From NCBI GenBank assembly GCA_051439605.1, contig JBFRWN010000044.1, positions 96,249-160,248 of the forward strand: 64,000 nt of DNA. The letters are read 5' to 3'. A program made the translations under genes and the position numbers. The DNA comes from Synechococcus sp. (GTDB lineage Bacteria; Cyanobacteriota; Cyanobacteriia; Thermostichales; PCC-7336). The notes under the pieces were generated by a model. It was not told the origin of the DNA and did not search any database. It worked only from the letters and a program-made list of their open reading frames with translations. The first letter of the stretch is position 1. Each line of letters opens with the position of its first letter. Shown piece by piece: positions 8,334 through 49,763 of this stretch.

Positions 8334-8467
8334 CACTGACCGCCCTAAGCGTGTGTTCTAGCAGGATCTAAACTGTGCTAACCCCATTCATGGTTAAGAA
8401 GTCCCAGAGCCCAATAGGAACCTTCAAACATCTGCTTTAGGATGATTGCGGTTTAGCTTCTACGTAC

Positions 8468-12129: not shown

Positions 12130-12153
12130 CGTTGTAGGCGCAAGCGAGCGATT

Positions 12154-12816
12154 GTGAGAGACTTCAGCAACTATCAAATTGTTGTGGCCTTGCTGTGGGC
12201 CACCCGCTGGACGTTACTGCTTTCTGGGGTCGCCTTTTTATGCGGGGGGGTGGCTGGATTTCTCCTGCTGTTAATGAGGATTTCCCCTCGCAAGCTGGTG
12301 CGCTGGCTGAGCCGAGGGTATTCCGAAATTGTGCAGGGGACGCCGTTACTGATTCAGTTTTTGATTACCTTTTTTGGCCTTAGCATTTTAGGGTTGGAAC
12401 TGACCCCTTGGTCAGCGGCAGCGATCGCTCTGACCATATTTACTAGCGCATTTTTGGGGGATATTTGGCGGGGATCGGTGGAAGCCATTCCAGAGGGGCA
12501 ATGGCAGGCCGCTCAGGCACTAAGTCTCAACTATTTTCAACAATTGCAACTGGTTATCTTCCCTCAAGCGTTGCGGCTCTCCATCGCACCAACGGTCGGA
12601 TTCCTAGCGCAAGTGGTGAAGGGAACATCCCTTGCTTCAGCGATCGGATTTGTGGAACTCTCTCGCTCTGCCAGCAATATTACCAACGTGACATTTGAAC
12701 CATTTTTTGTATATTTAACTACCGCATTAATCTATTTTTGTATTTGCTTTCCCCTCTCGTTTTTTAGTCGAAAGCTGGAGAAAAGGTTAGCCTATCCAGT
12801 CACCACAGCGATCTGA
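12154..12816 (+). CDS. Polar amino acid ABC transporter permease
   Basis: QGTPLLIQ, DIWRGSVEAIPEGQWQAAQAL, KGTSLAS. Confidence 0.93.
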   Translation: MRDFSNYQIVVALLWATRWTLLLSGVAFLCGGVAGFLLLLMRISPRKLVRWLSRGYSEIVQGTPLLIQFLITFFGLSILGLELTPWSAAAIALTIFTSAFLGDIWRGSVEAIPEGQWQAAQALSLNYFQQLQLVIFPQALRLSIAPTVGFLAQVVKGTSLASAIGFVELSRSASNITNVTFEPFFVYLTTALIYFCICFPLSFFSRKLEKRLAYPVTTAI

Positions 12817-12899
12817 GATACATTAACCCCTTAGCGAACTAAGTAGGGTCTTTATGCCCTGCCTTTTTGATTTCAGTTCAAGTTTAGGGACATCTTAAT

Positions 12900-13757
12900 A
12901 TGCGTCTTTCTATGGTTAAAAGACGGTGGTTTCTGGCAGCACTCATCACTTTTGTCACAGGCCTGTTTTACCTGGCGGCGTTTTCTGGGTCGGGCATCGG
13001 TCACTACAGCAGGGCACATGCCCAATCTACGGCAGCATCCAGCCTGGATAGCATCATCGAATCGGGGATAGTTAGAATCGCTGTCCCCCAAGATTTTGCT
13101 CCCTTCGGCTCTGTGGACATTAACGGTAATCTAGAGGGGTACGACATTGATGTGGCAACCCTGCTAGCCAAAGATTTAGGGGTGGAATTGGACCTACTTC
13201 CCGTCACTAGTGATAACCGCATCCCCTTCTTGCAAACGAACAAGGCAGACTTGGTTATTTCTAGCATGGGGGCCAATCCCGAGCGGGCAAAGTCGATCTT
13301 TTTCTCGATTCCCTACGCACCGTTTTTCTCAGGCATCTATGGTGCCGCAGCTCTCGGGGATATCGAAAACTTTGGAGATTTAGGTGGCTACACCGTCGGG
13401 GTCACCCAAGGTACCTTAGAGGATTTGGAACTCACCGATGCTGTTGGCGATGACGTGCAGATCGAGCGATTTGCCGACAACAGCCTCACTGCAGCCTCGC
13501 TCATTTCTGGCCAAGTGGACTTGATTGCCACGGGTAACGTGGTGGCAGCCGAACTATCGAAGAATAATCCCGACAAGCAGATTGAAGGAAAATTCATTAT
13601 CAAAGAGTCCCCCGCCCACATCGGTCTACGTCGCGGCGAATTGGATCTGCTGCAGTGGGTGAATACGTTTATCTACCACAAGCGATTGGGGGGAGATTTA
13701 AACGACTTTTCCCAAAAATGGTTCGGTCAGCCCCTACCCCCTCTACCTGCTTTCTAG
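12900..13757 (+). CDS. Polar amino acid ABC transporter substrate-binding protein
   Basis: Signal peptide; VPQDFAPFG, GYDIDVA, NRIPFLQTNKADLVIS (SBP family 3). Confidence 0.93.
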   Translation: MRLSMVKRRWFLAALITFVTGLFYLAAFSGSGIGHYSRAHAQSTAASSLDSIIESGIVRIAVPQDFAPFGSVDINGNLEGYDIDVATLLAKDLGVELDLLPVTSDNRIPFLQTNKADLVISSMGANPERAKSIFFSIPYAPFFSGIYGAAALGDIENFGDLGGYTVGVTQGTLEDLELTDAVGDDVQIERFADNSLTAASLISGQVDLIATGNVVAAELSKNNPDKQIEGKFIIKESPAHIGLRRGELDLLQWVNTFIYHKRLGGDLNDFSQKWFGQPLPPLPAF

Positions 13758-13920: not shown

Positions 13921-16900
13921 TTAGGTCTCTACTGCTCCTAAAGTCTTCAGCACTGACTTTTGCGCTTGACTCAATCCCGTCACACCATCGATCGCCATCC
14001 CTTCGTAGGGGCGATCGGCGCGCAGCCGCTGCAGACAGTCCCCCGTCTCCACATCCCATATAGCAATGGTGGCATCTCGACTGCCGCTAATCAGGCGATC
14101 GCCCGAAGGCGTCAGGGCCATGGTTTGGACCCAATTGCTGTGGGCAGGCCAATTGGCCACCTGCTTTCCAGAAGATACATCCCACCACTGCACGCTGCCA
14201 TCGTTGCTGGCGATCGCCAACCGCTCTCCGCTGGGGCTAAACACGAGCGACCACACCCAACCGCTGTCCACCGCCCAGGTTTGCAAGCAGTCTCCTGATT
14301 CGATGTCCCAAATCCTTACGGTTTCATCTGTGCTCCCACTGGCGATCAGACGCCCGTCGGGGCTACAGGCTAAGGCATACACCCACCGACTGTGGCCGTT
14401 CAAGACCGCTAATTCTTCCCCGGTTGCAGTATCCCAGATGCGCACCGTTTTATCTTTGCTACAGCTGATCAGCCGCTGGCCATCGGGGGTGAAGCGAAGG
14501 TCACGCACCCAGTTTTTGTGATTCTGCAATACGCACCGAGTTTGTCCGGTGGCCACATCCCAGAGGCGGATCGTTCGATCGGTGGAACCGCTGGCCAGTA
14601 AGGAGCCGTCATGGTTCCAGGCTACAGCAATCACCCAGTTGGAATGTCCCTTCAGAACGCGGGCCACTCGACCGCTATTCACATCCCACAGCTGCACATC
14701 GGGTCCATCGCTGCCACTGGCTAAATACCGGCCATCCGGTTTCCAAGCCACGCATTGCTCTCGGTGAGCGTGGCCGGGGAGAGTACGCACTACCTGACCG
14801 GTGGCAAGGTCCCAAAGCTTGAGGGTGTAATCGGTGTGGCTGCTGACTAATAGAGTGCCGGCTGGGTTGAGTGCCACTGCCTGTACCCAGTTGGTGAAAC
14901 CATGCCATGTCTTGAGGGTGCGACCGGAGGCGGTTTCCCAGAGCTTCACGGTGTGACCTTCGCAACCGCTAGCTAGCCTTCGACCATCGGGGTTCCAGGC
15001 TACCGTCCGCACGCAGTTTGTATGACCCGGTAACGTCCTGCAGATCTCTCCGGTGGCCACTGTCCAAAGATTTATGGTGCGATCGTCGCTACCGCTGGCC
15101 AACAGGGAACCATCAGGACTCAAGCTGACAGAGCGCACCCAATGTCGGTGCCCCTTCAAAATACGAATCGGTTGCCCCGTCCTAGCATCCCAGAGGCGTA
15201 TGGTGCGATCGTCGCCACAGGAGGCAAGGAAGCGACCTTCTGGGCTGTAGCTGACAGAGCGCACCCAGCCCTGGTGCCCCTGCAGTGTTTGCTTGAGCTG
15301 ACCGGATTCGACATCCCAAAATCGTACCGTACAGTCTTCACCAGCACTGGCGAGGGTCTTACCATCGGGGCTGAACTTTACCACTCGGACGGAACGGGTA
15401 TGACCCTCCAGAACCCTCAGCAGCTCGTAGGTCCTGGGATTCCACAAACGCACCGTGGTGTCTTCACTGGCACTGGCCAACAACGTAACGGCGGGATTAA
15501 ATACAACCGATCTCACGGTGTCGGTATGGCTGCGCAGCGTCGCCAAAGTATTGCAGCTGGAAGCATGCCACAGTTTCACCGTACGATCCGCACTGGCACT
15601 GGCCAATAGGTAAGGTGCAGTATCCCCCGGACGACCTATTTTCATGGGGGCAAAGGTGACCCCCCAAATGTAATTGGCATGGCCCTGCAGGATGGCGTAT
15701 TGCTCGTTAGTACGAGTATTCCACAGGCGAATCTCGGCATTATTATCGGAAGTGGCGAGATAGTTTCCGTCGGGGGAAAAGCTCACCGAAAGAATGCTGC
15801 CAAAGGTGTTGGTAAAAACCGAGTGGGACAGATTGCAATGACTGAAATTGCTCTGTTGCAAATTAGCTTGGCGGAAATCTGCATGCCAAATGGTCAACTT
15901 AGAAAAATCATAACCAGCCAGGCTAATGCCTAAAACACTGCAAAGGTTAATCACATTCCCTGCACCGTATCCCGAACGATAGGCCACATCATTTCTCAAC
16001 CAATCAAATACCTGCAACAGTTTTTGAGTAATCGCCTGCAAAGAACCACCAGTGGACGTTAACTGGTCTGCAATCGGTTTCAGGATGAGCAGCTTCTGGA
16101 CGTCGCGGATGTATTCTGCTGCTGTAGCTTTGGTCAGGGCGACACTTTGCAGCAGAGGTAGCCCGGCAATCTCGTCCAAGTTCCCGGATAATTCTATGGA
16201 TAGGTGTTGAACGAGACGATCGGTAACATATTCCATCACAACTGGCTGTTGGGTGTAACCTCCCTCCTCCTGCTCAATCAGCGATCGCCAAGTGAGGGAT
16301 TCTAAGGTCTGCAAGACAGTGGCCCGAGACACCGCAGGCACTAAGTCCTCTGCTAGTTGTGTCAGCATGACCGGCTCGCGGGCAGTCGCCAGCCAATACA
16401 TCACGCTTTGTTCGAGAGGGGACAGGCGGATAAACTGCTGATCCAGCAATTGTCGAATCGTGTTGAACAGGGTGATGTCCTGTTCGAGGAAGGTGGCAAC
16501 ATTACCGTCGAACAAAGTTTGGATGGAGGTGGCTACAATTTTTAACGGTAGCGGGCTATTTCCGTAGCGATCGCACAGCATTTCGAGCTGTGCCTCAGTG
16601 CCCTCCAACCCCCCTCGGTGCAGCAACTCCATCGCCATATCCGCACAGCCTCCCAATTGGAGGGAACGAACGGACAAGCCCACCCCTTCCAAGGCCGCAA
16701 TTTGAGCGGGTTTCTCGCGACTGGTTAATGCAACGCAACTTTGGTGAGAGGTTTCTCCCACTAAGCGAAATAGCTTGCCATACAGCTCGTACTCCGGACG
16801 ATACCGTCCCGCTTGGCCCGCCTGCAGAAGAGTCTCAATATTGTCCAAAACAACCAGGCAACGCTGCTTGCGAAGATGATGAATGGCCCGATCTACCGTG

Positions 16901-17496
16901 GCTTCTTTATCCTGACCGTTCGACAAAAAATCAACTAACTCTATGAGGAGATCGTCCAGGGGGGGACCATTACGCAACGATCGCCAGAAAACACAATCAA
17001 ACTGCGAAGCGATTTGTTGACCTAGCTTAATGGTGAGGGAGGTTTTGCCCATCCCCGCCATCCCGAACAAGCCCACCAGCCGGCACCGATCGCCCACAAT
17101 CCACTGCTGCAGTTGCTGCAGCTCTTGCGAACGGCCATAGAACATCGAGACATCGGCAGCATCCCCCCAATCTTGGCGGCTGACGTCATTGTCGCGGGCC
17201 ACATGCATTGGGGGGGTCTCATCTGGCCGCACGTAATCGACCGCCTCAAGAGTTAGTCCAAACGCCTTAAAAAAAAACTCAATGGTTTGTCGATCGACCG
17301 GCACCCGTCGAGCCGTCACTTTTGTCAACGTGTTGGGACTGAGTCCCGTACGCTCGCTTAGCTCCTCAAGCGTAAACGAACGGCTGTAGTTGTCCCGCAA
17401 CTCAACCGCCTCGCGCGCCTGCTGCAATTTTTGCCACCCTCTTGGGCTTAAAATTACGCCCCTTTTGCGTCGAGTGCGCTTGACAGCTCCGGTCAT
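13921..17496 (-). CDS. HTH(XRE-like)-NB-ARC STAND NTPase-pentapeptide-WD40 protein
   Basis: N-terminal [33 protein letters not shown] Walker A, LVVLDNIE Walker B, TSRE, pentapeptide stretch, 14 countable WD40 repeats, C-terminal RPYEGM..GVTGL. ATG 17496 preferred over GTG 17541. Confidence 0.93.
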
Positions 17497-17552
17497 TTTG
17501 TTCTCAAGTCGCAGTTTGCAATCTATTTTGCATATTTCCACACAAATTTCTG

Positions 17553-26684: not shown

Positions 26685-27983
26685 GTGAAGCGACCGATTG
26701 CAGTCGATCTGTTCGCCGGAGCTGGGGGAATGAGCTTGGGATTCGAGCAAGCTGGGTTTGAGGTCTTGGCAGCGGTGGAAATTGATCCCATCCATTGCGC
26801 CGTGCACGAATTTAATTTCCCTTTTTGGCGGATGTTTTGCCGCAGCGCAGCAGACATTACCGGAAGGGAGATTCGTGAAGATTCCGCCATTGGCGATCGC
26901 TCCATCGATGTTGTGTTTGGTGGTCCACCCTGTCAAGGATGCTCCACCATTGGCAAGCGGGCGTTAAACGATCCCCGCAATGGGTTGATGCTCCACTTCC
27001 TAAGGTTAGTGCTGGAACTTCAACCCCGCTATTTCGTAATGGAAAACGTCAGAGGGCTGACAATCGGTCGCCATCGCCAGCTGCTCAAGGAGCTGATAGC
27101 AAGCTTCGCAGACAGCGGCTATCAGATCGTGCAGCAGTACCAAGTCTTAAATGCAGCCCATTTTGGAGTACCGCAGGATCGACAGCGCTTGTTTCTGATG
27201 GGGGCACGAGCGGGTGAACCTTTGGCCCAATATCCCAATCCCACTGTCCTCCCTGCCCGACCCATCCATAATGCAGGATTTCAGGAGGGAGCGACTTCGG
27301 AAGAGCTACCCAACGGCCCGACGGTGGCGGATGCCATTGCCGATCTCCCCGATATCGAACAATATGACGTACTGTTCCAGCAGGATTGGATGGGGGTGGG
27401 CCTCGCCCCGGAAGCCAGCAACTATGCCAAACTTTTGCGCGGCGATCTCCACTCCCCACAAGATTTCTCTTACCGACGTCAGTCTCCCTACACGGGGTTA
27501 ACTTGCAGCGGTCGCACCCGCCACAGCGTTGCCACCATCGAGCGCTTCCGCCGCACCGAGCCCGGCACGGTAGATCGCGTCAGTCGCTTTCTCAAACTGC
27601 ATCCCGATGGCCTTTGTAATACCTTGCGGGCGGGAACCCCCAGCAGTCGAGGGGCGTTTACATCTCCTCGTCCCATTCATCCATTCACCCCCCGCTGCAT
27701 CACCGTCCGCGAAGCAGCTAGGCTCCATTCATACCCTGATTGGTTCCGCTTCCACTCCACAAAGTGGCATGGCTTTCGCCAAATTGGTAATTCTGTGCCG
27801 CCGCTACTGGCGCGGGCGGTGGCCTCCCAGGTGATACAGGCCTTGAACATCTGCCCTCGGCGACCTCGCAAAATATATCCTTTAGGGGACCCTCAACTGC
27901 TACATCTCAAAATGACTCAAGCATCTGCCCGCTACAACGTCAGCAAACACACCATTGCCCCGCGACAGCGAATTGAAGTCTAA
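26685..27983 (+). CDS. Orphan C5 DNA cytosine methyltransferase, probably the HIP1-core CGATCG type
   Basis: DLFAGAGG (motif I), GGPPCQG (IV), MENV (VI), VPQDRQR (VIII), TVREAARLHSYPD, QIGNSVPP (X). The TLRAGT...FTSPRPIHP region resembles the M.Ssp6803I/DmtC family from memory. No adjacent endonuclease. Confidence 0.9.
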   Translation: MKRPIAVDLFAGAGGMSLGFEQAGFEVLAAVEIDPIHCAVHEFNFPFWRMFCRSAADITGREIREDSAIGDRSIDVVFGGPPCQGCSTIGKRALNDPRNGLMLHFLRLVLELQPRYFVMENVRGLTIGRHRQLLKELIASFADSGYQIVQQYQVLNAAHFGVPQDRQRLFLMGARAGEPLAQYPNPTVLPARPIHNAGFQEGATSEELPNGPTVADAIADLPDIEQYDVLFQQDWMGVGLAPEASNYAKLLRGDLHSPQDFSYRRQSPYTGLTCSGRTRHSVATIERFRRTEPGTVDRVSRFLKLHPDGLCNTLRAGTPSSRGAFTSPRPIHPFTPRCITVREAARLHSYPDWFRFHSTKWHGFRQIGNSVPPLLARAVASQVIQALNICPRRPRKIYPLGDPQLLHLKMTQASARYNVSKHTIAPRQRIEV

Positions 27984-32560: not shown

Positions 32561-34876
32561 GTGAAAGCGAGCAGACGTGATTTTTTAGTCAGAAGCCTCT
32601 TGGGGACAGCCGGGATCGCCGTTGCCCCCCAGATCGAAGCAGCAGCCCAACGCATATTGGGCCAATCTCAAACCTGGGGATCGGCTATGGCCGCCACCGC
32701 GGGTCGCAAATTTGCATTGTTGGTCGGGGTCGATCGCTACAGCAACGGCCTCGACCCCCTACAGGGATGTGCCACGGATGTCACTTTGCAGCAGGAGGTA
32801 CTGGAACATCGGTTTGGGTTTTCCAACATTGCCACCCTGATCGACGAAGCTGCCACACGCGCAGCGATCGAACAAACATTCATTGACCATCTCATCGAGC
32901 AGGTGGGACCCAACGATTCCGTTGTTGTTCACTTTAGTGGCTACGGACGGACTCTTCCCGATGGCAGTCCGCTATTGATGTCAGCCGATGCTCAGGCTAA
33001 TCCTGCTGGTGGGGAAATTACCGATCTGCCTCTAGAAACTCTCTACCAGCTGGTTCAAGCCCTCAACACCAGATTAGTCACCGTTGTTTTAGATTGCGGC
33101 TTCGCTACAGAAACCACCGCAGAATTAGGCAATTGGCGGGTGCGATCGCCGCTACCTCTTGCGAGCTTAGAAGTGGCTGATGGAGATGACTCTGATAGTT
33201 ATCGCCATCCAGATTACCGATATGCAAAAGCGGTACTAGAGCGGCAAACTAGCATCCACGAGAAATACCGCACTAGCCCCCCCCCTGGAAGCTTTAGCTA
33301 CGGCCTCATCAGTCGAGCGCAGGGCAACTGGATAATGGCAGCGGCCCCTGGCCAAGCTGCGGCAGAGGGCTTTTGGAATGGATTTAGTGCCGGCTTGCTG
33401 ACCTACCTCTTGACCCAGTCCCTGTGGGAAATGGGGGGCGTCGATGATTGGCAACAGCTCTATCAACTGACCAGCGCAAAAGCCCAGCAAGCGGCGGTTC
33501 CTGACGAGCGGCCCATTTTGCAAGGGAAAGGCAATAGCCCCAATCGCCCTTATTCCCCGGATCCGATCGCGATCGGTCCAGCAGGGGCTTCGGGGGTTAT
33601 CCATGCGGTGCAAGATGACCGCACTGACATCTGGTTGGGAGGAATCTCCCCAACTGTCCTGCCTTTTTTGAAGCCAGGGACCCGGTTTAAGGATTGGAAC
33701 GACGGTAAAGAGTGGGTGCTGAAATCCCGGGAACGGCTTACCGCTCGTGTAGAGCCAGCCGAGGATCTTTCCCCGCCCACCCCCCTGTCCTCAGAGGACG
33801 CTGCCACCCAGCAGCCCGCCAGTCAGCTGCCTGCTATCCCAGCAGCCGCCTCCACTGGTGGGGCAGCTTCTCAGAGAACGGCATCCCCCCTAGGAGCTCT
33901 GGTAACGGAAGTCCAACGGGTTATTCCATTGGCGCGGTTAGCCATTGCCCTCGATAACAGTTTGCAGCGGATTGAAAAAGTTGATGTCAGCAGCGTCCTG
34001 TCCAACGCGAATCTGGCCGGAGAACTGCATGCGCTCGAAACCGCTCAATTGCAGGAGCGTGCGGTGGACTGTTTGTTTGGCCGCATGACACCCGATTTAC
34101 AGGCACAACTGACTCTGGAGAACCCTCCAGAAGTCGGCAGCTACGGCCTGATGTGGTCCGGTCGCGTTCCTCTCTACGATTCCTTCGGCAATGCTGGCGA
34201 AGCCCCCAAAAGCGCTATCAAACGGCTCATTCCCCGGCTGCAGCATCTACTAGCGGTTAAACGCCTGCGCGCAACTCTGAACGACAATGTTTCCCAGCTC
34301 TCGGTGGTGCTAGAGATTGGCAGTGGTGAAACTACCTGGCAAGCGGGAACCGCTCCTGCCGCCACCCAAACCCCCCTTGTCCGCAAGCTGAAACGAGGTC
34401 GAGTGGGCATTCCGCAACTCAAGGTGGGAGCACCATTGGTTTACACCCTTGAAAACCGAGGAAACACCCCCATTTATGTGGTTTTAGCTGTCCTCGATCG
34501 CCTCGGACGATTGTGCGTGTTAGCGAACCAAGGGGGAGATAACGCAGGAGCTTCCATAACGATTGCCTCCCACAGCAAGGTGGATCTGGGGCAAGCCTTG
34601 GGGATCGGTTTCGCAGTGCGCGCGCCACAAGGACTGACCGAGGTGTTTGCGATCGCTAGCAGTAACCCGATGCCTGCATCGGAAGATGCCCTCCAAACTG
34701 TCGCGCAAGCGATGGGGATCCGCAGCGGATTTGTTATGCTCCCCCAGCCCATAGACTTTGCCCAAACCGTATTGGCGGATCTGACGTCCCCTGGAACAGC
34801 CGAAGGGACCCGGCTACTCGATCACGCCCAAAGTGCCACGATTGGACTAGCCTACACCGTAGTCCAATCTGTCTGA
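32561..34876 (+). CDS. Peptidase C14 (orthocaspase)-like protein with Tat signal, degenerate catalytic dyad and C-terminal DUF4384-like domain
   Basis: SRRDFL twin-arginine motif; KFALLVGVDRY, LQGCATDV, ATRAAI; HFSGYG and VLDCG at the dyad positions. Confidence 0.85.
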   Translation: MKASRRDFLVRSLLGTAGIAVAPQIEAAAQRILGQSQTWGSAMAATAGRKFALLVGVDRYSNGLDPLQGCATDVTLQQEVLEHRFGFSNIATLIDEAATRAAIEQTFIDHLIEQVGPNDSVVVHFSGYGRTLPDGSPLLMSADAQANPAGGEITDLPLETLYQLVQALNTRLVTVVLDCGFATETTAELGNWRVRSPLPLASLEVADGDDSDSYRHPDYRYAKAVLERQTSIHEKYRTSPPPGSFSYGLISRAQGNWIMAAAPGQAAAEGFWNGFSAGLLTYLLTQSLWEMGGVDDWQQLYQLTSAKAQQAAVPDERPILQGKGNSPNRPYSPDPIAIGPAGASGVIHAVQDDRTDIWLGGISPTVLPFLKPGTRFKDWNDGKEWVLKSRERLTARVEPAEDLSPPTPLSSEDAATQQPASQLPAIPAAASTGGAASQRTASPLGALVTEVQRVIPLARLAIALDNSLQRIEKVDVSSVLSNANLAGELHALETAQLQERAVDCLFGRMTPDLQAQLTLENPPEVGSYGLMWSGRVPLYDSFGNAGEAPKSAIKRLIPRLQHLLAVKRLRATLNDNVSQLSVVLEIGSGETTWQAGTAPAATQTPLVRKLKRGRVGIPQLKVGAPLVYTLENRGNTPIYVVLAVLDRLGRLCVLANQGGDNAGASITIASHSKVDLGQALGIGFAVRAPQGLTEVFAIASSNPMPASEDALQTVAQAMGIRSGFVMLPQPIDFAQTVLADLTSPGTAEGTRLLDHAQSATIGLAYTVVQSV

Positions 34877-40233: not shown

Positions 40234-41466
40234 ATGCTGAATCATCCAAAACACCAAGCTTGTCTTTGTGGGAGCAATGCAGAAGTCGTTAAAGCACTGA
40301 CAGAAACAGAGAAAATAGTAATAGGAAGGGCTCTAGACTGCCAGATTATTTTCGACGCTCCCCAGGAGGATGTCAGCGTCTCCAGACACCATGCAGAAGT
40401 GCGCCCTCTGGCCGAGTCAGAGGATTGGGAAATTTGCGACCTCAACAGTGCTAACGGAACCTTCGTTAACGGACAACAATTGCATGGATGTTTAAGATTG
40501 ACTCCGGGCGATCGCCTAACTTTTGGCCAGAGTCCACGGGAATTAGTTTTTGAAGTCCAAACGCTCCCGGCTATAGAGACGGGAACGGAAGTTTCTTCTC
40601 CGGGACAGAAAGGTCCTTTGTCGAGGCCAACAAATCATCACCGTAGTATTCTCTCTCCTGGAAGCTGGTTTCCACCGTTACGATCCCCCATTCAAAGCTC
40701 TGACTCAAAACCACGCTCAAGCTGGCAAGAGCTGTGGGAAAAAGGCAGATTCTCGTCGGTATTTATCTACTTAATACTATGTTTGATCGCAGTTTCGGTA
40801 TCAGATCGAGGCATTTCTAACGCACTTTTTACTGGATGCCTGCTAAGCATAGCCATTGCAACCATTTCTAGATTATGTGGCAAGTATAAGCCTTGGTGGC
40901 TGATCTTAGGATTAGCCTCAATCACTGCGGGTTTAACAGTTGTGGGACATGACTTGTTACCCGATATCCTAGCTGTAAAAAACGGTATATCTATTGTAAG
41001 GCAGTTGATTAAGGCTCCTACAAAAGAGATAATCAAAGCACTACCTGTGCTAAGCATCTATTCTATGGGCAGAATGCTGCCTCGCGCTTTACAGAAGAGA
41101 ATCAGAATTGTCGATCCTCTGGATGGAGTCTTATTAACAATTGCTTCAGCAATTGGGCTCGTAGTTGTTGAAAGTTATCATAAAGATCTTGCTCTCATTA
41201 TTGCTGGAATTTTGCCCAATACTGCCGGGGATTTAGCTTATAGTGGAGTTTTTGGCTACTACATTGGCCTGAGCGCAATGAAGAGTCCTCGTCACCGTTG
41301 GAAAATAATCGGATTTGGTTTTTTGCTGACGTCAGTGCTTCATTTTGTTCTAAATCTCAGATTTTTTCCAGTCGAGATTAGGATTTTGCTATCAATTTTA
41401 GAATATAGTCTGTTGATAACCTGTATTCTTAAAGGAATAGATGAAGCAGAAAAAATGAGAGCATAG
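40234..41466 (+). CDS. FHA domain plus PrsW-family intramembrane protease-like protein with degenerate catalytic motifs
   Basis: FHA: IGRALDCQI, VSRHHAEV, DLNSANGTFVNG. PrsW-like: LCGKYKPWW, KEIIKALP, DPLDGVLL, AYSGVFGYYIGL, LH..LN. Confidence 0.85.
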   Translation: MLNHPKHQACLCGSNAEVVKALTETEKIVIGRALDCQIIFDAPQEDVSVSRHHAEVRPLAESEDWEICDLNSANGTFVNGQQLHGCLRLTPGDRLTFGQSPRELVFEVQTLPAIETGTEVSSPGQKGPLSRPTNHHRSILSPGSWFPPLRSPIQSSDSKPRSSWQELWEKGRFSSVFIYLILCLIAVSVSDRGISNALFTGCLLSIAIATISRLCGKYKPWWLILGLASITAGLTVVGHDLLPDILAVKNGISIVRQLIKAPTKEIIKALPVLSIYSMGRMLPRALQKRIRIVDPLDGVLLTIASAIGLVVVESYHKDLALIIAGILPNTAGDLAYSGVFGYYIGLSAMKSPRHRWKIIGFGFLLTSVLHFVLNLRFFPVEIRILLSILEYSLLITCILKGIDEAEKMRA

Positions 41467-41586
41467 ATCTGGCTTAAAATTCACGATTGCAGAATCAGGC
41501 AAGCATGCTTTAGATACATTAGCTCGCTTGTAATCAGTTTAGGCTTGATGTTCTCACGCTACTAAGCAGCACTCATTTTGAGAATA

Positions 41587-42741
41587 TTACCGTTTCTTAA
41601 GATGTAAAGAGACATGGATGATTTGCTGAAGAGATTCGGGAACTTCTAAATAGATTGCATTCGCAATCTCTCCGAAAATAGTTGCTAAAGAACCAGGATA
41701 TATCATAATTGACAAGCCATATTTAACAAGACAAGCAGTCAGAGCAAGCTCTTCGATTAAATATTGGCGAGACAATTCTACAAAGTTTTCGAAATTGTCA
41801 GCATTCCGTTCGATGTGCCGAAGTGTAAAGTCATCGGCACAAGCTTTAACTGAAAGGGCAAATCTGCTATCTTGGGCAACTAAATCTTCTATTCGCTTGA
41901 GATTTTTATAATACTCATCTGAATTTTCGATCTCTGAAGCACAGATCGTATCGATATGGCAGGTGTCTGCATGTCGTTCAAAGATGCCGCTTGACTTGTC
42001 TATGAATTCTCTCCCGAGAAGCAGTGCTTTGGTACGTGCTCGCCTTTCGCCAATACCTCTGTGGATTTGCAATGTATATTGATGAATGCTATCAGCAATA
42101 AATACCGTGCATCTCTTGTAATGATTTGCGATCCAATCTACTGTTGCTATCAACCTTGGCATTGAAAATTTTTTGTTTTCTAAACTTACTCCTAAAAAGC
42201 AATGTTCGTTCTGATTAAGCTTTTTCCGAGCAGTATTCGGAATAACATTGCTCACCAGTGCGCGATATCTAGAGCGAGTTAAAAAGGATATTTCCTGTCG
42301 CGGTTTTATCAGCTTTTCGTATTCTCTATACTCCATTCTCAAGAGATGTCGGTAAGACCCTAGATAACAGGAAATTTCTTGATTTTGGAGCAAATCTTGC
42401 GCAAGTATGGTTTCCATCTGATAGATATTTCCGAAGGGGGGGATGGTACCATACTCGCACCCGGGAAATAACTGGCTAGCTTCTTGTCGATCGATCAACC
42501 TAACCTGGGTTGTCCCTAAAGCTTTTTGAAGAGATCCCAAATTAATTGCTAAACTCGCGGGGATCACCACCATAGCTTTGTGATGATGTTCGATTTCTAC
42601 GATTACAGCTTCAATTAGCTCCATTCCTAACATGGATTTATAGTCCGAAAGTTCCTGCTCTGTACAAGCTGGTGAATGTTCGATCGTTATATATTTGATC
42701 TTGTTCTGATTTAAAACATCCTGGACTTTCTGAATCATCAT
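41587..42741 (-). CDS. Fusion of a YbaK/ProX aminoacyl-tRNA editing domain to a tRNA-dependent cyclodipeptide synthase (XYP subfamily, BcmA-like)
   Basis: Residues about 1-148: HSPACTEQE, MVVIPAS..INL..L, FPGCEYGTIPPFGNIY (GxxxP loop). Residues about 158-384: HCFLGVSLEN (catalytic Ser), CTVFIADSIH, ALLLGREF, SRQYLIEELA (Tyr/Glu), MIYPGS, VSLHLKKR. Confidence 0.88.
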   Translation of the reverse strand: MMIQKVQDVLNQNKIKYITIEHSPACTEQELSDYKSMLGMELIEAVIVEIEHHHKAMVVIPASLAINLGSLQKALGTTQVRLIDRQEASQLFPGCEYGTIPPFGNIYQMETILAQDLLQNQEISCYLGSYRHLLRMEYREYEKLIKPRQEISFLTRSRYRALVSNVIPNTARKKLNQNEHCFLGVSLENKKFSMPRLIATVDWIANHYKRCTVFIADSIHQYTLQIHRGIGERRARTKALLLGREFIDKSSGIFERHADTCHIDTICASEIENSDEYYKNLKRIEDLVAQDSRFALSVKACADDFTLRHIERNADNFENFVELSRQYLIEELALTACLVKYGLSIMIYPGSLATIFGEIANAIYLEVPESLQQIIHVSLHLKKR

Positions 42742-42753
42742 GACCGATAAATT

Positions 42754-45700
42754 CTATATGTCGTGACAGACTTCTAGTTCTTTTTTGGCTTCGGGATGCG
42801 TGGCTAGATAATCCTTTAGCCAATTGCATCCCTTGTCTATGAGTTCCTCGTAGCTGGCAATTGGCCACAGATAAGCAATTCCATTGGCTGAAGCAGTGAC
42901 TATCTGTTCTCCATCGGGACTGAAGCTGGCGCTATGGACTGCATCGCCTTGATGATCCGTAAAAAGAGGGAATAGTTTGCCCTGCAAGTCCCACTGGCGA
43001 ACGGAGCCATCTGCCGAGCCAGTGAGCAAATGCTTCCCATCGTGACTGAAACTGACGCTATGGACTGCACCTTCGTGGCCAGCGAATTCTTCTTGCAGTT
43101 GATTGGTCTTTAAGTTCCACAGGCGAGCAGTTTTATCCGCCGATCCAGTCAATAGATAGTCTCCTTCAGGACTAAAGCTAACGCTCCAGATCCAGCCTGT
43201 ATGGCCTGGGAATTCTTGCACTTGATTGCCCTGCAAGTCCCACAGTCGTGCCGTGCCGTCAGCCGATCCTGTCGCAACCTGCTGCCCGTCAGGACTGAAT
43301 TGTACACTCCATACCTCAGTCTTCTCGCCGACGACAGTTGCGAGTTCTATCACGTCTGCAACGTCTATAACCTCCCCTTGTGGACGATCTGGCAAGTCAT
43401 AGATACGAACCGTGCCGTCAGACGAGCCAGTGACTAACTGCTGACCGTTGGGGCTAAAATCGACCCCCCAGACCCAATCCTTGTGACCAATAAATGTGGC
43501 TAGCTGATTCCCTTCTAAGTCCCACAAGCGGGCGCTACCATCTGCCGATCCGGTTGCAAGCTGCAGTTCGTTGGGGCTAAAACTCACCTCCAGTACCGTT
43601 CCCTCATGGCCGATAAAATTCGCTTGCTGATTCCCCTGCAAGTCCCATAAACGAGCGGTGCTATCTGCCGAACCTGTGGCTAGTTGCTGCCCGTTGGGGC
43701 TGAAACTGGCGCTATAGATGAGACCCGAATGACCGATGAACTTAACCTGCTGCATATTCTTCAAGTTCCACAGTCGAGCAATGCCATCGGTCGAACCCGT
43801 TGCAAGCTGCTCTCCATTGGGACTGAACTCAACGCTCCAAACTTGGCCACGATGCCCTCTAAATTCTTCAAGTTGATCTCCCCGTAAGTTCCACAGGCGA
43901 GCTGTGCCGTCTTCCGAGCTTGTCACTAATTGCTGGCCATCCGAGCGGAACCGGATGTTATAAACCGGCCCACGGTGACCTCTCAATTCTTTCACTAGAG
44001 CACCCTGTAAATTCCACAGGCGAGCTCTTCCATCTTCTGCGCCGGTTGCTAACTGTTGCCCATCGGGACTGAAATTCACACTGTAGACTGCACCTTCGTG
44101 GCCTGTAAATTCGATCGAGCGATCGCCCTCGATATCCCACAGACGGGCGGTGCCACCTGCCGAACCCGTTGCGAGATACTTTCCATCGGGACTAAAGTTG
44201 ACACTCCAAATCCAGCCGTTGCTATCTGAGTATTCATGCAGGAGGTTGCCCTCTAAGTCCCACAGACAAGCTGTACCGTTATCCGAACCGGTAGCCCACT
44301 GCTGACCATCGGGGCTAAAACTAATGCTCAAGACTTTGCCCTGAAGGTCCTTAGTGAATTGAATCAATCGATCGCCCTGTAAGTCCCACAGGCGAGCCGT
44401 ACCATCCCACGATCCAGTCGCTAGGTACTGACCATCGGGACTGAAACTGACAGTCTGGACTCTGTCCAGATGGCCTTCTAACTCTCGCAGTAGATTGCCC
44501 CGTAAATCCCATAAGCGGGCCACACCATCTTGCGAGCCGGTAGCCAGCTGCTGACCATCGGGACTGAAACTGACACTCCAGATTTCACTCTCAAGGGGTT
44601 GAAATTGATTGCGTTCTTCAATCCCGTAAAGAATTTTCCCCAGTGCCATCACAACCGTCGGTGCTTGTGCAAGTAGATTTTTTCCTTCACCCATTCTTTG
44701 TGCAGACTGCATTGACATCAGCAAGGCTTTTAACTGTGAAGAGGTCTCGAACTCGCGCAAAGCCTCTAACCCCTCCCGTTCCAGTTTCAATGCGCGCAGT
44801 CTAGATTGACTTTCCCTAAAGACCAGTCCTCCGACTATGGTTGAGACTGTCAGACCGATCAAGAGTACTGCCGTCGCTTGTTGAAGCCGCTGCTTTGCCT
44901 TGCGAGAAGCATTATTGACGTGTTCTAGTGTTTTATTCGCTTGTTCCAGGCTTTGGTTGACTCGTTCCAGTTTTTGATTGGCTTTTTCTACTTTTTCCTT
45001 AGCGTGGCGTAATTTCTCTTTCGCATCTTGTTCCGCCTTCTTTGCTCGACGCTCGCTCTTCAACGCTGTTTCAATGTCCTGTTTCTCTCGTTCCCGACTG
45101 GCATCTAAAAACTGATTGTCGTCATCGCTCAAGCTTTTCCCCTTTGCCCATACCTTCGCCTGCTGCAATGCCTCGCCCCGCAACAGACAGGTATCATCCT
45201 GGCGGTTGGAGGCAAGCCAAGCATTGAGGAATGCAGCATAGGGGCGCAGGTTCGCCAATTCCCCTGCCACCCAGTCCAAGTCAAAAATGGCCTGGTAGAT
45301 AGGATTGCGGGAGCGGATTTTATCCCGATCCTTCACCACCAACCCCGACAGGCGCAGGTCAATCTCCTCCAGACTTTCCGTAGCGCTAACTTCCCCCTGT
45401 TGCAGCACCCGTTCGTAAAGAGCCAGGATGCGCCCTTTACGGGGGTTAGGATTGCTCAAATCCTCTCTTAGCAGGCGATCGCGAATAGTCTTCAGGTGCT
45501 CGGGAACATCCTGTGCCTCCCACTTGTAAAGGATGCGATCGCGCACCAATTGGGCTACCCGGTCTAGCTCTTCCCCAGCAGCGATGGGGGACTCGGACGA
45601 TTGAACCAACCAGCATAGCTTCTGAACGAGGAACGGCTGTCCCCCCGTCCAGGCCAAAATCTCTCGCAACACCGCTTCGGGATTGGCCGCTTTCCCCCTC

Positions 45701-46398
45701 AATCCCTTTTTCAGGGGTTCCTGAACCTCCTCAAACGTAAAGCCAGCTAGATCGATCGCCCGCCCGATGTTGAAGGGGGTACGCGCCTTATCCTGAATCA
45801 AGTCCGACGGATTAGCTACACCAATGAGGGCAAAGGTGAGGCGGCGGAAGGCGGGCTTGTCCGTGCGCGCGTTATAGCAAGAGCGGATGAAGGCAAAGAA
45901 GTCATCCCGCGAGAAGCCCTTTAGGCTGAGAACGCTATCGATTTCATCGATGAAAATGGCGATGGGCTGCTGCACTTCCACCAGCAGTACCGTTTCGATA
46001 AAGCAGCCTAAAAGTTCCACCAGGGTGAAAGAGTCCCTCTCCCTAAGCCAACTACGAAGGTTAATCTTCTCCCCCAAATCAAAACTCCTCGTTAGGTGGC
46101 GAATGACCGCCGAGTACCATTTTTTGGGGGTTACGTCCTGACTGCTACCGATACTGCTGAGGTCGATTGCCGCACAGGCTACCCCCTCCCGTTGCAGCCG
46201 TTGCATCACCTGCACCCGCACGCTCGATTTCCCCATCTGGCGAGAGTTGAACAGGTAGCAGAACTTCCCGGCCCTGACTGTTTCGTAGAGCTCTCGATCC
46301 GCCTGTCGTTCGACGTAGGTGGGATCGTCTGCCAGCAAGCTACCCCCGACATGGTAGTCAACTGAAGGAGGGGAAGGATAAATGGCGGGAAAATTCAT
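42754..46398 (-). CDS. AAA_35-type STAND NTPase-coiled coil-TM-14xWD40 protein
   Basis: [27 protein letters not shown] Walker A, IFIDEIDS Walker [16 protein letters not shown], coiled coil, TM helix [18 protein letters not shown], 14 countable WD40 repeats. Confidence 0.93.
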
Positions 46399-46475
46399 CG
46401 TTCTCAAACAAGGGTAGGGAATTGAACGCTGTGTTTGGGAGCAAGGGATGTCTCAGTTCGTCTTGAACCTATTCC

Positions 46476-48395
46476 CTACGTCCGACTTGCTAGGCGCTCG
46501 CGGAAGTACTGCCGATACAGTTCGGAGCGAGGCGAAACTTCGTTGCCTTCAAAATTGACCAATCCCAGACGATTCAGCTTGAATTCAAATTCGGGCTCTA
46601 AGCAAACAGGCTCAGAAGCCGTGACTACTGTTTGCATTGCTGCCAGCAAATCGGGATGCCTTTTAAGATTTCGAAGATGTCGTCTGAGATGATTTCCATA
46701 GAGTCCTGCATCTGTTGAGGCAGTCTCTAGCAGTTGGTCAAAGTTGAGCCCTTGGCATGCAAGATGGTAAAGGGCAACTCGAATCAGATAAGGATGTCCG
46801 CCAATCACCGCCATCAGGCGATCGACCTGCTCGCTTGTCCAATTGAGTCCGTATCGATGGGCTAAATCCAACACTTGCTCGGGGGTGAATTCAGGTAAAG
46901 AAATTTCGATTCCTACGTTAAAAGGGGAGGAGTTGGTGTCCATCACAACATAGACTTCTGTGGAATAGGCGAGGATTAATCTCACTTTGGACCAGATGCT
47001 ATGTGTTTTAGATTGCTCGTGCCAGTAACGAAGCAGTTTGAGAAAATCTTTAGCGACTCGGTGTTGGTAGAAAAGACTATCAATATCGTCAAGAGCTAAT
47101 ACCAGAGGACCGTCAACTTTTGGAAGCAGACATTCCTCAAAGTATTGCGAACAGTTGACATTGGGACCAAAGAATTCTTCATCCCAATATTCGTTGATTT
47201 TCTTAGGAGAGATACCCAGTTCTCGACTCACTAACGCACAGAAGCGGCGCAGAAGTTGGTTGAGATTCGAACATACGCTCTCTTCAAATTGAGTGAAAGA
47301 CAGTAAAATAGTGCGATAGCCTTGCTTTTGCGCATAGTCAAGAATCCTGACCATTAAAGATGTTTTGCCCATATCGAGGGGGGCTTTTAGCCGAATCAGA
47401 GCTGCTCGCTTGACAATCTCTCGATAGCAGCGGTTTTCAAGCTCCGCTCGCGCGAGGTAAAACGCTGATCCTAAGGCTACGTGCCCTCTGGGATCGTCCT
47501 GACAAAACTCGTTGGGGGATGGAATGGGGAAAACGGTTTCCTCGGCGGAACGAGCGATCGCATCCCGAACAGCTTGTAGAGCTTCAGCCGCAGTCTGGTA
47601 TCGCTGGCGGTAGTCCTGGCGCACCATCTTGTCTAGAATCGCGGCCAGTCCGGGGGAAATGACAGCCCGTTCTTTTAACAGCGCACACCGATATTCCTGC
47701 GTCTCTGGGGTCTGGGGGAAATTATTCGGAGTCAAGCCAGTTAGAGCTTGCAAGCAGACCAGTCCCGCAGCGTACAGATCGCTGCTGTAGTGGGGATTGC
47801 CCATCAATTGCTCCCTCGGTGTATAGCCGGGGGAGCCTATGGGAACAGACCGTTGGGACGCTCCATTACCATTGGTGCCAAGGTTTTGGAGATCTTTGAC
47901 TGCCCCAAAATCGATCAGGACAATTTTGCCATCACTGGCTCGCCGAATGAGATTGCTGGGCTTGATGTCTCGGTGAATGGCGTTCTGGGAGTGGACAAAT
48001 ACCAACACCTGCAAAATATCTTCGAGGAGAGCGATCGCCGCCTGCTGACTGAGTGGCTCTCCTTCTACCAGTTCCCGAGCCAGGGGGTGTCCCCGCACGT
48101 AATCCTCCACGAGATAGAAATTCCCCGATTCCTCAAAGTGAGCTAGAAGTCTCGGAATTTGGTCGTGCTCTCCCAACCGGTAAAGGCTTTTCGCCTCATC
48201 ATCAAATTTGCGCTTCGCCAGATCGAAGACTTTGGGTTCTTTGGGTTTGAGTTTCTTGACAACACAGAAAGGGTTGCCTGGTAAGTGGCGGTCTTTCGCA
48301 ATATACGTTTGCCCAAAGCCCCCTGCGCCTAACTGTTTGACAATTTCGTAACGATTAGCCAGTACTTCAACCATAGAATTCTTACCATTTGTCAA
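46476..48395 (-). CDS. Pkn2-type Ser/Thr protein kinase fused to an AAA_35-type STAND domain
   Basis: LGAGGFGQTY, VVKKL, HRDIKPSN, DFG, SDLYA; then GHVALGSAFY, KAPLDMGKTS, LALDDID, SPFNVG, GGHPYL. Alternative start ATG 48374. Confidence 0.93.
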   Translation of the reverse strand: MTNGKNSMVEVLANRYEIVKQLGAGGFGQTYIAKDRHLPGNPFCVVKKLKPKEPKVFDLAKRKFDDEAKSLYRLGEHDQIPRLLAHFEESGNFYLVEDYVRGHPLARELVEGEPLSQQAAIALLEDILQVLVFVHSQNAIHRDIKPSNLIRRASDGKIVLIDFGAVKDLQNLGTNGNGASQRSVPIGSPGYTPREQLMGNPHYSSDLYAAGLVCLQALTGLTPNNFPQTPETQEYRCALLKERAVISPGLAAILDKMVRQDYRQRYQTAAEALQAVRDAIARSAEETVFPIPSPNEFCQDDPRGHVALGSAFYLARAELENRCYREIVKRAALIRLKAPLDMGKTSLMVRILDYAQKQGYRTILLSFTQFEESVCSNLNQLLRRFCALVSRELGISPKKINEYWDEEFFGPNVNCSQYFEECLLPKVDGPLVLALDDIDSLFYQHRVAKDFLKLLRYWHEQSKTHSIWSKVRLILAYSTEVYVVMDTNSSPFNVGIEISLPEFTPEQVLDLAHRYGLNWTSEQVDRLMAVIGGHPYLIRVALYHLACQGLNFDQLLETASTDAGLYGNHLRRHLRNLKRHPDLLAAMQTVVTASEPVCLEPEFEFKLNRLGLVNFEGNEVSPRSELYRQYFRERLASRT

Positions 48396-48860
48396 AATCG
48401 CAATATCCTACTTTCACAATGAAGTTTATTTTGATCGTCACCGTCCAAGAAATCTTCGCTCTAAAGTCGGTCTCAAACCCATTCAATTACCAAATTTTGC
48501 ATGGTTTCAGAAGCAAAAACTTCTCGTATAGAATAGGATTGTCCTGCTAAAAACAATAATAAATGATTTGAAATTCAAAAGCTGACTATACATGGATCAT
48601 TACGCAAAGAAAGTTTTCTCCTGGAGGTTTCTTGGACTAAGCAATGTCTTTCGAAGTGTTGAAGTGTCTTCACTCCATCAAAAGAGAGATACCTCTAGTA
48701 TCGCCTAGCCTCTAAGCCGAGCAATTTAAATCATACAAATTGAAATCTTTTAATCTTTGCTCCTACTTATGTCAATCCCCTAATGCGTTGCTGGAACCAA
48801 ATTTTCCCTGTCCAACCAGCCAGGGCTCGTTGGACGATCGAACAACAGCGTTCTAGCGAA

Positions 48861-49763
48861 TCATTTGGCTAAGGCTTCAAACCCTCCCACAATATCGAGC
48901 AGTTCGGCTGTAATCGAATTTTGCCGTTGGCGGTGATATTGAGTTTTCAAATCAGAGAGACGCTCTTCGATATTCTTTTCCGCAGACTGCATCGCAAACA
49001 TGCGACTAGCATTTTCACTGGCTAAAGACGCTGCGAATGCCCGGTACAGACTGACAAAGAAATACTCCCGAATTAACTCGGAGAATAGCTGTCCGCGCTC
49101 CATTGTAAATGTGGGGATGGTTTGGGAATGCCACTCCTGTTCTTGCAAGTGATGCAGCCAGCTCGAATCAATGGGAAACAACTGCAAAGAGGAGGGTTGA
49201 TAGGTTGCTGCTGTCAGGGGATGGTTGTAGAACAGCAAAATCCGTTCGAGCTGCAGCTGCGATCGCCATCGCTCGATACAAAACAGCAGATCCTGTACTG
49301 CTGGCATAATTTCTGTGACTGAGTTCGGTACCGCAAACGTCTCCGCCACCGTATACCCCCGCTGTTCCAGAGGGGCGTGGACTCTTGCTCCCACAGCAGC
49401 GATCGACACCTGCATCGGGACTAAGTTAAATAGGTTCAACCGTTCTGTTGTGAAGGTGGCGATCCGCTCATCAAATTGACCGCACAGCCCCCGATCGGAT
49501 CCCCAAACAATAGCCCCCACTTTTCCTGCCGCTACAGCGCTAAGGGGTAACGACTCCGCTCTAGCTTGCTCGGAAAATCGTTGTTCCTGGAGCACAATTT
49601 GGAGTCCCATTTCCACCGTGCAGCCGTAATCCTGGAGGGATTCCACCGCCTTGCGGTACTGCAGGATGCTGACAGATGCCAGCGCCTTCATCGTTTTGAC
49701 AATAGCTTGCAAGTCTTCAACACTCTCGATCTTGGCTTGTAGCGCTTCTGGCGTCAGTCCCAT
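48861..49763 (-). CDS. atpG: N-ATPase F1 subunit gamma
   Basis: DLQAIVKTMKALA, GSDRGLCGQF, SLASENASRM.AMQSAEKNI, RQNSITAELLDIVGGFEAL. Confidence 0.95.
   Translation of the reverse strand: MGLTPEALQAKIESVEDLQAIVKTMKALASVSILQYRKAVESLQDYGCTVEMGLQIVLQEQRFSEQARAESLPLSAVAAGKVGAIVWGSDRGLCGQFDERIATFTTERLNLFNLVPMQVSIAAVGARVHAPLEQRGYTVAETFAVPNSVTEIMPAVQDLLFCIERWRSQLQLERILLFYNHPLTAATYQPSSLQLFPIDSSWLHHLQEQEWHSQTIPTFTMERGQLFSELIREYFFVSLYRAFAASLASENASRMFAMQSAEKNIEERLSDLKTQYHRQRQNSITAELLDIVGGFEALAK

Follow-up and report, generated by a model that had tools for sequence, protein, structure and literature searches.

Why would an enzyme that must keep an aminoacyl ester intact carry, in the same chain, an editing fold whose relatives hydrolyze that ester? 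The question is raised by a gene at positions 41587 to 42741, minus strand, of a 64,000-nucleotide (nt) stretch of a Synechococcus sp. assembly (contig JBFRWN010000044.1; we call this whole stretch the window), which joins a YbaK/ProX-type editing fold without its catalytic lysine to a cyclodipeptide synthase (CDPS). CDPSs are usually treated as entry enzymes of diketopiperazine natural-product pathways. The gene context is our main new finding and our strongest contextual clue; it was not part of an earlier first-pass annotation made from the letters alone. At 15 of 20 fused loci, a gene for a nucleoside triphosphatase (NTPase) with WD40 repeats shares the strand of the fusion and either adjoins it or is one gene away. 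This adjacency spans five gene orders and two NTPase types, and it is seen across Nostocales, Prochloraceae, Leptolyngbyaceae and a Synechococcus. With modest confidence, we read the fusion as an active CDPS and a non-hydrolytic tRNA- or ligand-binding module that together form the output of a STAND-type conflict or signaling operon. An output of a STAND/NLR-like system seems the most likely role because the gene is the last of an operon with NTPase-WD40 genes and because SIR2, TIR or phosphoesterase domains accompany it in relatives. The linkage points to cyclodipeptide synthesis, or the resulting consumption of aminoacyl-tRNA, as what such a system may put out, a reading that we did not find in print. 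The gene and its parts are as follows.

41587..42741, minus strand: open reading frame (ORF) of 384 amino acids (aa) plus stop, made up of a YbaK-fold domain, a short linker and a cyclodipeptide synthase (Pfam, NCBIfam and PDB matches, AlphaFold2).
42298..42741, minus strand: N-terminal YbaK/ProX-fold domain, residues 1-148, 3op6/lpg1207 type (PF04073, 3op6_A, Foldseek).
42610..42612, minus strand: GAA codon for Glu44, where the superfamily has its catalytic lysine (YbaK K46 in H. influenzae; alignments, DNA).
42277..42297, minus strand: linker, residues 149-155 (AlphaFold2 model and split-domain prediction).
41590..42276, minus strand: BcmA-like XYP cyclodipeptide synthase domain, residues 156-384 (PF16715, TIGR04539, 9j61).
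42184..42186, minus strand: AGT codon for catalytic Ser186, S43 of SsBcmA and S37 of AlbC (9j61 alignment mapped by hand).
41695..41763, minus strand: stretch with Tyr327 (41761-41763), Glu331 (41749-41751) and the XYP pair Tyr348-Pro349 (41695-41700).

The ORF has an ATG start and no internal stop. Both halves exceed their Pfam cut-offs: PF04073 (tRNA_edit) matches residues 22-144 (E 8.1e-16, 58.7 bits against a cut-off of 25.5) and PF16715 (CDPS) residues 171-334 (E 9.2e-16, 58.7 bits against 27), while TIGR04539 of NCBIfam scores 103.1 bits against a cut-off of 45. The best PDB sequence matches were 3op6_A for residues 1-148 (E 1.4e-25) and 9j61 for residues 147-384 (E 3.8e-42). AlphaFold2, given 102 aligned sequences, folded the whole chain with a mean predicted local distance difference test score (pLDDT) of 96.3 and a predicted template modeling score (pTM) of 0.93. 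Searched with Foldseek, this model matched 9j61 at a target-normalized template modeling score (TM) of 0.93-0.97 (36-37% identity), 3op6 at 0.89 and H. influenzae YbaK 1dbu at 0.77; against 5ocd it gave 0.85-0.87, which indicates a Rossmann-type CDPS fold for the predicted structure. No chain spanning both halves was among the Foldseek matches listed. The first-pass annotation had described a single 384-aa ORF of YbaK/ProX plus CDPS architecture and had proposed HMMER searches with the two Pfam models, a structure prediction and a search for the architecture in other genomes. All three bear it out: both profiles match, the predicted two-domain fold is confident, and the fusion recurs at 19 other loci. 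The motifs it had quoted are all in the ORF (FPGCEYGTIPPFG, HCFLGVS, YLIEE, YPG, FLGVSLEN, DSIH, LGREF and VSLHLK). A frameshift or assembly artifact is ruled out by the identical architecture at those 19 loci.

The fusion is real and old, and it is rare. We found it in cyanobacteria only, at 20 loci, and other cyanobacterial assemblies, and metagenomes, also contain proteins of 373-394 aa that match residues 1-384. A word-indexed search gave 27 matches, about 20 of them with both domains in 346-391 aa, from Nostoc, Prochloraceae, Leptolyngbyaceae and Nostocales. The named ones are annotated just 'tRNA-dependent cyclodipeptide synthase', so the fused architecture is invisible to genome mining. 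An exhaustive library search returned 2179 matches at E <= 1e-3, with full-length ones down to 29% identity. Scanning a genome collection gave 38 loci, 13 of which cover query residues 1-384 (all cyanobacterial, in 11 assemblies), and a metagenome scan added 6 fused loci among 25. When we took an even sample of 401 cyanobacterial genomes, the window genome had the only full-length match, and two others had CDPS-only matches.

We built a quick tree of the CDPS domain from 131 rows, out of 145 fetched proteins, matching the CDPS-domain profile; 35 of the 131 also matched the N-domain profile at 90 bits or more. Twenty-six crown fused proteins and 3 short, probably truncated proteins form one clade (SH-aLRT 91). 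Fused proteins that keep the lysine stand on deep, poorly supported branches among plain CDPSs, and the well-supported branches require at least three changes of fused/unfused label. At one locus (L046 2530-3678), adjoining an IS605 OrfB-type gene, the fused gene reads as two ORFs of 83 and 293 aa, because either this copy is broken or the sequence contains an error.

Other CDPSs carry other partners. All nine BcmA-like CDPSs of 417-452 aa that we checked (P0134, P0141, P0163, P0168, P0176, P0177, P0178, P0181 and P0190) carry a C-terminal cyclic-nucleotide-binding (cNMP_binding) domain, an architecture that recalls cyclic-nucleotide-gated effectors, and 17 C-extended rows group in a single clade of 27 rows of the tree. 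P0139 (697 aa) has an N-terminal receiver domain and the CDPS domain at its C-terminus. P0165 (713 aa) likewise ends in a CDPS domain, and it has no Pfam match at all.

The C-half is a CDPS of the BcmA-like XYP clade that looks active, and the gene thus probably encodes a working tRNA-dependent enzyme. Its best match, 9j61, is SsBcmA, the synthase of cyclo(L-Ile-L-Leu), or cIL, in bicyclomycin biosynthesis according to passages of PMC11580168. We mapped catalytic and pocket residues by hand from the 9j61 alignment onto the numbering of that paper: S186 is S43, Y327 is Y185, E331 is E189 and Y348-P349 is Y206-P207 of SsBcmA. The corresponding AlbC set is S37, Y178, E182 and Y202, and the Tyr-Pro pair of the XYP subfamily falls at AlbC positions 202-203. 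Ser186, Tyr327, Glu331, Tyr348 and Pro349 are unchanged in 34/34 fused proteins, and the X position of the XYP subfamily, N189, equals SsBcmA N46. The first-pass annotation was therefore right to call the catalytic set intact and of the XYP subfamily, and the likeness to BcmA that it had named is confirmed by the 9j61 match in sequence and fold.

The leucine pocket of SsBcmA has F, G, L, G, C, I, F and M at its eight P1 positions, and the fused family by majority has the same residue at every one. Synthesis of the cyclo(Leu-X) type is therefore probable for the family taken together. The window protein has F, G, F, A, A, L, T and M at these positions. It keeps F182, G184 and M346 and differs at F214, A216, A268, L334 and T335; being identical to SsBcmA at only 3/8, it need not make cIL, and we would predict its product no further than 'hydrophobic'. 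According to passages of Gondry et al. 2018 (PMC5816076), many of the XYP CDPSs that showed no activity in E. coli had their origin in fungi, cyanobacteria or metagenomic species; this may find an explanation here, if such enzymes need an extra domain, their own tRNAs or activation by a partner protein.

The remaining genes of the module in the window, and its convergent neighbor, are these.

42754..46407, minus strand: 1217-aa gene with an AAA_35 P-loop NTPase (residues 22-375) followed by 14 WD40 repeats.
46476..48395, minus strand: 639-aa Ser/Thr protein kinase plus AAA_35 NTPase, the first gene of the three-gene module.
40234..41466, plus strand: 410-aa FHA domain plus PrsW-type membrane protease, a convergent neighbor whose module membership is uncertain.

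The fusion is the last of these three same-strand genes, which lie directly downstream of the ATP synthase operon. Only 12 nt separate the end of the AAA_35-WD40 gene from its start codon, with no terminator-like site in the gap, and a promoter and terminator scan of 41300-49000 gave nothing exceeding shuffled expectation. Locus L043, whose fusion is 61% identical, has the identical gene order, including the kinase-AAA_35, AAA_35-WD40 and convergent FHA-PrsW genes. The gene appears to lie outside any diketopiperazine antibiotic cluster: in Pfam scans of 46 further window ORFs, no cytochrome P450, 2-oxoglutarate (2OG) dioxygenase or methyltransferase was found within ~10 kb, bcm-type 2OG dioxygenases or P450 were absent, and the nearest transporter genes in the window are ABC permeases at 11458-13754. 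This agrees with the first-pass statement that no tailoring or transporter gene lies nearby. Membership of a bicyclomycin cluster is ruled out by the lack of tailoring genes and the different P1 pocket, and both speak against a BcmA ortholog.

In the window, a protein kinase takes the place of the SIR2, TIR or phosphoesterase effector genes that are found elsewhere. Effector domains of these types are in the operon at 13 related loci. The gene orders at other fused loci are as follows.

L002-L008: Metallophos plus SIR2_2 gene (~720 aa), nSTAND1-WD40 gene (~1300 aa), fusion.
L001 and L045: SIR2_2 gene, nSTAND1-WD40 gene, fusion.
L044: nSTAND1-WD40 gene, fusion.
L010: fusion, SIR2_2-nSTAND1-WD40 gene.
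L012: fusion, SIR2_2 plus TIR_2 gene, nSTAND1-WD40 gene.
L046: WD40 gene ended by the contig edge, then fusion.
L011 and L047: ended by contig edges and outside the 15 loci with an NTPase-WD40 gene.
L048: likewise outside the 15 loci; SIR2 part retained and adjoining a TnpB-like gene; the SIR2-NTPase gene (L048 3865-6010) stops after its SIR2 part.

As a control, we ran tblastn at E <= 1e-6 with seven queries (NTPase, WD40, kinase, SIR2 and SIR2-TIR proteins and a conserved 170-aa neighbor); none of 44 unfused CDPS loci from public collections matched. Five unfused cyanobacterial CDPS loci that we annotated with Pfam have a P450-like gene, TerB genes or housekeeping genes instead. The window genome itself holds a second CDPS module, on another contig (C93; L068 1-9483). 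A divergent TIR-nSTAND1-WD40 gene on the minus strand, ended by the contig edge, is followed there by a CDPS gene, a SIR2_2 plus TIR_2 gene (531 aa) and an nSTAND1-WD40 gene (1098 aa). This CDPS (284 aa, 3562-4416) has no YbaK domain and has an internal insertion, with CILGISLEN, YLLEE and YPGS intact. Since it is unfused, the STAND-type link is with the CDPS clade and not with the fused form alone.

Several other genes near these loci caught our attention. Seven loci with the Nostoc-type operon also encode, upstream or downstream of it, a conserved ~170-aa protein (L002 11319-11816; L003-L008) without a Pfam or PADLOC match; L002, L006 and L008 have an additional 382-aa protein with weak trypsin-like matches. 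TerB-domain genes adjoin BcmA-like CDPS genes at three cyanobacterial loci, two unfused and one fused (L019 12342-12836, L028 11001-12958, L014 11279-11776), and at L019 a weak P450-like gene comes directly after the CDPS. At L014, from a Symploca sp. metagenome-assembled genome, the fused gene adjoins a divergent 880-aa homolog of the major vault protein (7169-9808), whose matches (best E 3e-64) are to the models Vault repeat, MVP_shoulder and Vault_2/3/4. In the window, the 1206-aa WD40 protein at 13924-17541 has an N-terminal part with weak matches to NB-ARC, NACHT and nSTAND1 models and also carries helix-turn-helix and pentapeptide segments. Other conflict-type genes in the window encode a 771-aa caspase-domain protein (32561-34873) and a C-5 cytosine DNA methylase (26685-27980).

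The context bears directly on a more conventional possibility, that this is an ordinary secondary-metabolite CDPS making a hydrophobic diketopiperazine, whose N-domain merely improves the capture of aminoacyl-tRNA and whose NTPase-WD40 neighbors are unrelated, present by chance or shared ancestry. We think this unlikely. The closest characterized enzyme does belong to an antibiotic pathway, the family majority does share the leucine pocket of SsBcmA in each of the eight P1 residues, cyanobacteria have WD40 NTPases in abundance (the window itself contains another, at 13924-17541), and the fusion differs in G+C from its upstream gene. Against this, the adjacency persists through five gene orders, two NTPase types and several cyanobacterial groups and is found at 0/44 unfused loci. 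The gap of just 12 nt, the second CDPS of the same genome in a similar operon and the lack of any tailoring, export or resistance gene nearby (Pfam, window ORFs) also argue against it.

What, then, does the N-half do? It belongs to the 3op6-type branch of the YbaK fold. The structure 3op6, deposited by structural genomics, is that of Legionella pneumophila lpg1207, and a full-text literature search found no paper that mentions it. We collected 69 free-standing relatives of 151-193 aa that are 32-45% identical to the N-domain. Among those aligned, 16/16 have a lysine in 'aKT', and 16/16 also keep H22, C95, N105, G128 and H130. In a profile alignment, with the position counted in the alignment, this lysine falls on H. 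influenzae YbaK K46, and it also aligns with lysines of E. coli YbaK, APE2540 and a prolyl-tRNA synthetase (ProRS) INS domain. Passages of PMC3532385 report K46 to be critical by mutagenesis, and passages of PMC9425024 describe the lysine and a GXXXP loop as conserved among trans-editing domains. The fused proteins have mostly changed this site: it is Glu44 in the window protein and, over 34 fused proteins, E in 22, K in 4 (P0104, P0109, P0110 and P0112), N, D and R in 2 each, and A and S in 1 each. Tyrosine has replaced other residues of the free-standing family, at position 22 (Y in 19 fused proteins, H in 5), at position 126 (N in the free-standing family, Y in 19, Tyr126 here) and at position 130 (Y in 18, H in 1, Tyr130 here). 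The GXXXP loop is retained as G98-T-I-P-P102, with G98 in 26/34 and P102 in 31/34.

Loss of these residues has not been accompanied by general decay. Mean pairwise identity among 16 crown-group proteins is 63.1% for the N-domain against 61.6% for the CDPS domain, and by this comparison the N-domain in the crown group is constrained, not decaying. We conclude from the alignments that it probably has a new, constrained role. The domain seems to have descended from a free-standing YbaK/ProX-type deacylase and to have lost the catalytic lysine and other residues invariant in its free-standing relatives, yet it has stayed under strong constraint. It would no longer hydrolyze aminoacyl-tRNA; as an integral module of the enzyme, it would probably bind or gate the aminoacylated acceptor end, or a small ligand, without hydrolysis. 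YbaK proper is ruled out (TIGR00011, 36 bits against a cut-off of 153; NF007951, 14.5 bits against 243), as is ProXp-ala membership at the equivalog level; the JGI label 'Ala-tRNA(Pro) deacylase' on free-standing relatives is an automatic name. The window genome has no free-standing YbaK, and its other tRNA_edit match is in a 627-aa ORF that is probably prolyl-tRNA synthetase.

Relatives of this domain turned up elsewhere as well. Eight CDPSs (P0117, P0124, P0126, P0130, P0137, P0149, P0164 and P0182) have an N-extension of ~130 aa that matches the fused N-domain profile weakly, with E of 1e-3 to 1e-9. Seven of these extensions have no Pfam match, and P0182 was outside the Pfam scan; they are probably strongly diverged copies of the YbaK-fold domain. 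Proteins P0132, P0162, P0183, P0196, P0211 and P0240 have N-domain relatives in other architectures, namely three or two tandem tRNA_edit domains, Usp plus tRNA_edit, tRNA_edit plus a SnoaL-like domain, and tRNA_edit plus eRF1 domain 3.

The two-domain pTM implies a confident relative orientation of the halves. When they were folded as separate chains, three runs gave a median interface score (ipSAE) of 0.69, and the best of three controls scored 0.00; the mark we used is reached by 116/157 solved complexes and 2/215 mismatched pairs, a rough guide with our own alignment. The split-domain runs shared at least 87% of their contacts, and partner pLDDT was at least 86. Predicted contacts on the CDPS side are residues 151-158, 188, 190, 193-195, 198, 245, 249-250, 252-253 and 384, and those on the N-domain side include 36-42, right before Glu44, and 60-67. 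Residues 188-198 lie directly after catalytic Ser186, so the N-domain would be rigidly docked beside the post-Ser186 loop and the end of the long helix 232-255. Residues 151-158 lie against the N-domain in both the whole-chain and the split-domain predictions. Conservation at the predicted interface does not exceed that of the other residues. Overall, the models support one rigid body of two domains with a fixed interface; they say nothing on tRNA.

Such a body could also work as a switch, with the N-domain as an allosteric sensor of uncharged tRNA 3' ends, of free amino acid or of the cyclodipeptide product that turns the CDPS on or off. This would hold with or without the NTPase system, and the cyclic-nucleotide-binding and receiver domains of sister proteins may act likewise. 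The sister CDPSs of the clade (9/9 checked with cNMP_binding, one with a receiver domain), an old pocket remodeled to Glu and Tyr rather than lost, and a predicted rigid docking that adjoins the catalytic loop all suit a sensor. We nevertheless rate it as quite improbable, since this branch of the YbaK fold is without a known ligand and since the data do not separate a sensor from a substrate-holding site. The idea partly coincides with the explanation we prefer and does not exclude it.

Most doubtful of all is a working deacylase that proofreads the substrate pool and, by hydrolyzing unwanted aminoacyl-tRNAs or intermediates loaded in error, keeps the CDPS to a single defined cyclodipeptide: the fold is intact, the GXXXP loop is kept, the domain is strongly constrained and 4/34 fused proteins have the lysine, but hydrolysis is unlikely because the superfamily's catalytic lysine, critical in YbaK, is Glu44 here and non-Lys in 30/34, His22 and His130 are mostly Tyr, the weak matches of the eight N-extended CDPSs suggest further decay over maintained chemistry, and a hydrolase joined to an enzyme needing the same ester would waste substrate. 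The first-pass annotation had offered hydrolytic proofreading by the extra domain as one option, and the replaced lysine and the replacement of two histidines invariant in free-standing relatives speak against it. Its softer options, that the domain recruits or channels aminoacyl-tRNA or regulates the synthase, fit the predicted rigid docking by the catalytic loop.

A number of points weigh against our preferred explanation, an output module of a STAND-type operon with a non-hydrolytic N-domain. The enzymatic roles of both halves rest on sequence and model. The window NTPases are of AAA_35 type and not nSTAND1, no SIR2 or TIR gene is within the window, and PADLOC has no model matching the fusion and assigned only generic kinase, WD40, phosphoesterase and TIR models to the neighbors. 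The G+C of the fused gene is 0.39-0.41 against ~0.53 in the upstream NTPase-WD40 gene, so the two may have been joined recently, by transfer. Two fused loci, L009 and L014, have unrelated neighbors, and WD40 NTPase genes are common in filamentous cyanobacteria. Because loci repeat or share ancestry (L045 and L048 are repeats of L001 and L010; descent is shared among the Nostocales loci), what counts as independent evidence is not the 15 loci but about five gene orders. As for the N-domain, some fused members may still hydrolyze because 4/34 retain the lysine, the Glu44 forms might use another catalytic arrangement, and Glu at a substrate-contacting site could disfavor nucleic-acid binding altogether. 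Contacts 151-158 form the linker strand and are partly trivial from chain connectivity, and the old pocket was placed relative to the CDPS active site from the predicted contact list alone.

The preferred explanation can be extended beyond this operon. To our knowledge, CDPSs are not a known effector class of STAND systems. We put forward tentatively, as a possibility, that immune or conflict systems of the NLR-like kind (STAND NTPase-WD40) in multicellular cyanobacteria have in BcmA-like CDPSs a class of output not recognized before. When the sensor fires, the CDPS would drain charged tRNAs and stall translation; alternatively, the SIR2/TIR NADase-type proteins encoded alongside would receive the diketopiperazine as an alarm or second messenger. 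The aminoacyl-tRNA end would be held or gated by the disabled editing domain, and the cNMP-binding and receiver-domain sister fusions would place the same enzyme under other signaling inputs. What sets the architecture apart is that an editing fold without its catalytic lysine has been recruited into an enzyme for which the aminoacyl ester has to stay whole. If this is true, the fusion is a natural pseudo-enzyme for studying how an acceptor end is handed over between sites.

In full-text literature, we found no paper on a YbaK-CDPS fusion, in keeping with the first-pass remark that none had been characterized, and no CDPS in a defense or STAND context (for phage, among the matches listed). The words 'cyclodipeptide', 'CDPS' and 'YbaK' are absent from the main texts of the conflict-system surveys PMC7159879 and PMC8195603, and the family overview passages of PMC5816076 do not name a YbaK-CDPS fusion.

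Known systems resemble the fusion in part. The free-standing lpg1207-type proteins are the best match of the N-half in both sequence and fold (E 1.4e-25, TM 0.89), but they keep Lys, His22, Asn105, Gly128 and His130 where the window protein shows Glu44, Tyr126 and Tyr130 among its changes. The YbaK, ProXp and ProRS-INS deacylases (1dbu, 2dxa) share the fold and the GXXXP loop; their catalytic lysine is missing in the window N-half, which has no link to tRNA-Pro. BcmA is likewise an XYP CDPS, with 36-37% identity over ~225 residues and the same Ser, Tyr, Glu and Tyr-Pro. Unlike the fusion, it has no N-terminal domain and sits in a cluster with oxidative tailoring enzymes, whereas the fusion carries a 148-aa YbaK-fold domain and has no tailoring genes around it. 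Multi-domain CDPSs described in passages of PMC5816076 have C-terminal methyltransferase, P450 or ABC partners, which modify or export the product; the partner here is N-terminal and has an aminoacyl-tRNA editing-type fold. STAND conflict systems, in the parts of PMC7159879 that describe them, combine nSTAND NTPases and WD40 or TPR arrays with SIR2, TIR, caspase and other effectors. The window operon differs from these in its AAA_35-type NTPases and its protein kinase, but the operon partners of its relatives are of the same kind, with nSTAND1-WD40 proteins accompanied by SIR2_2, TIR_2 and calcineurin-like phosphoesterase domains.

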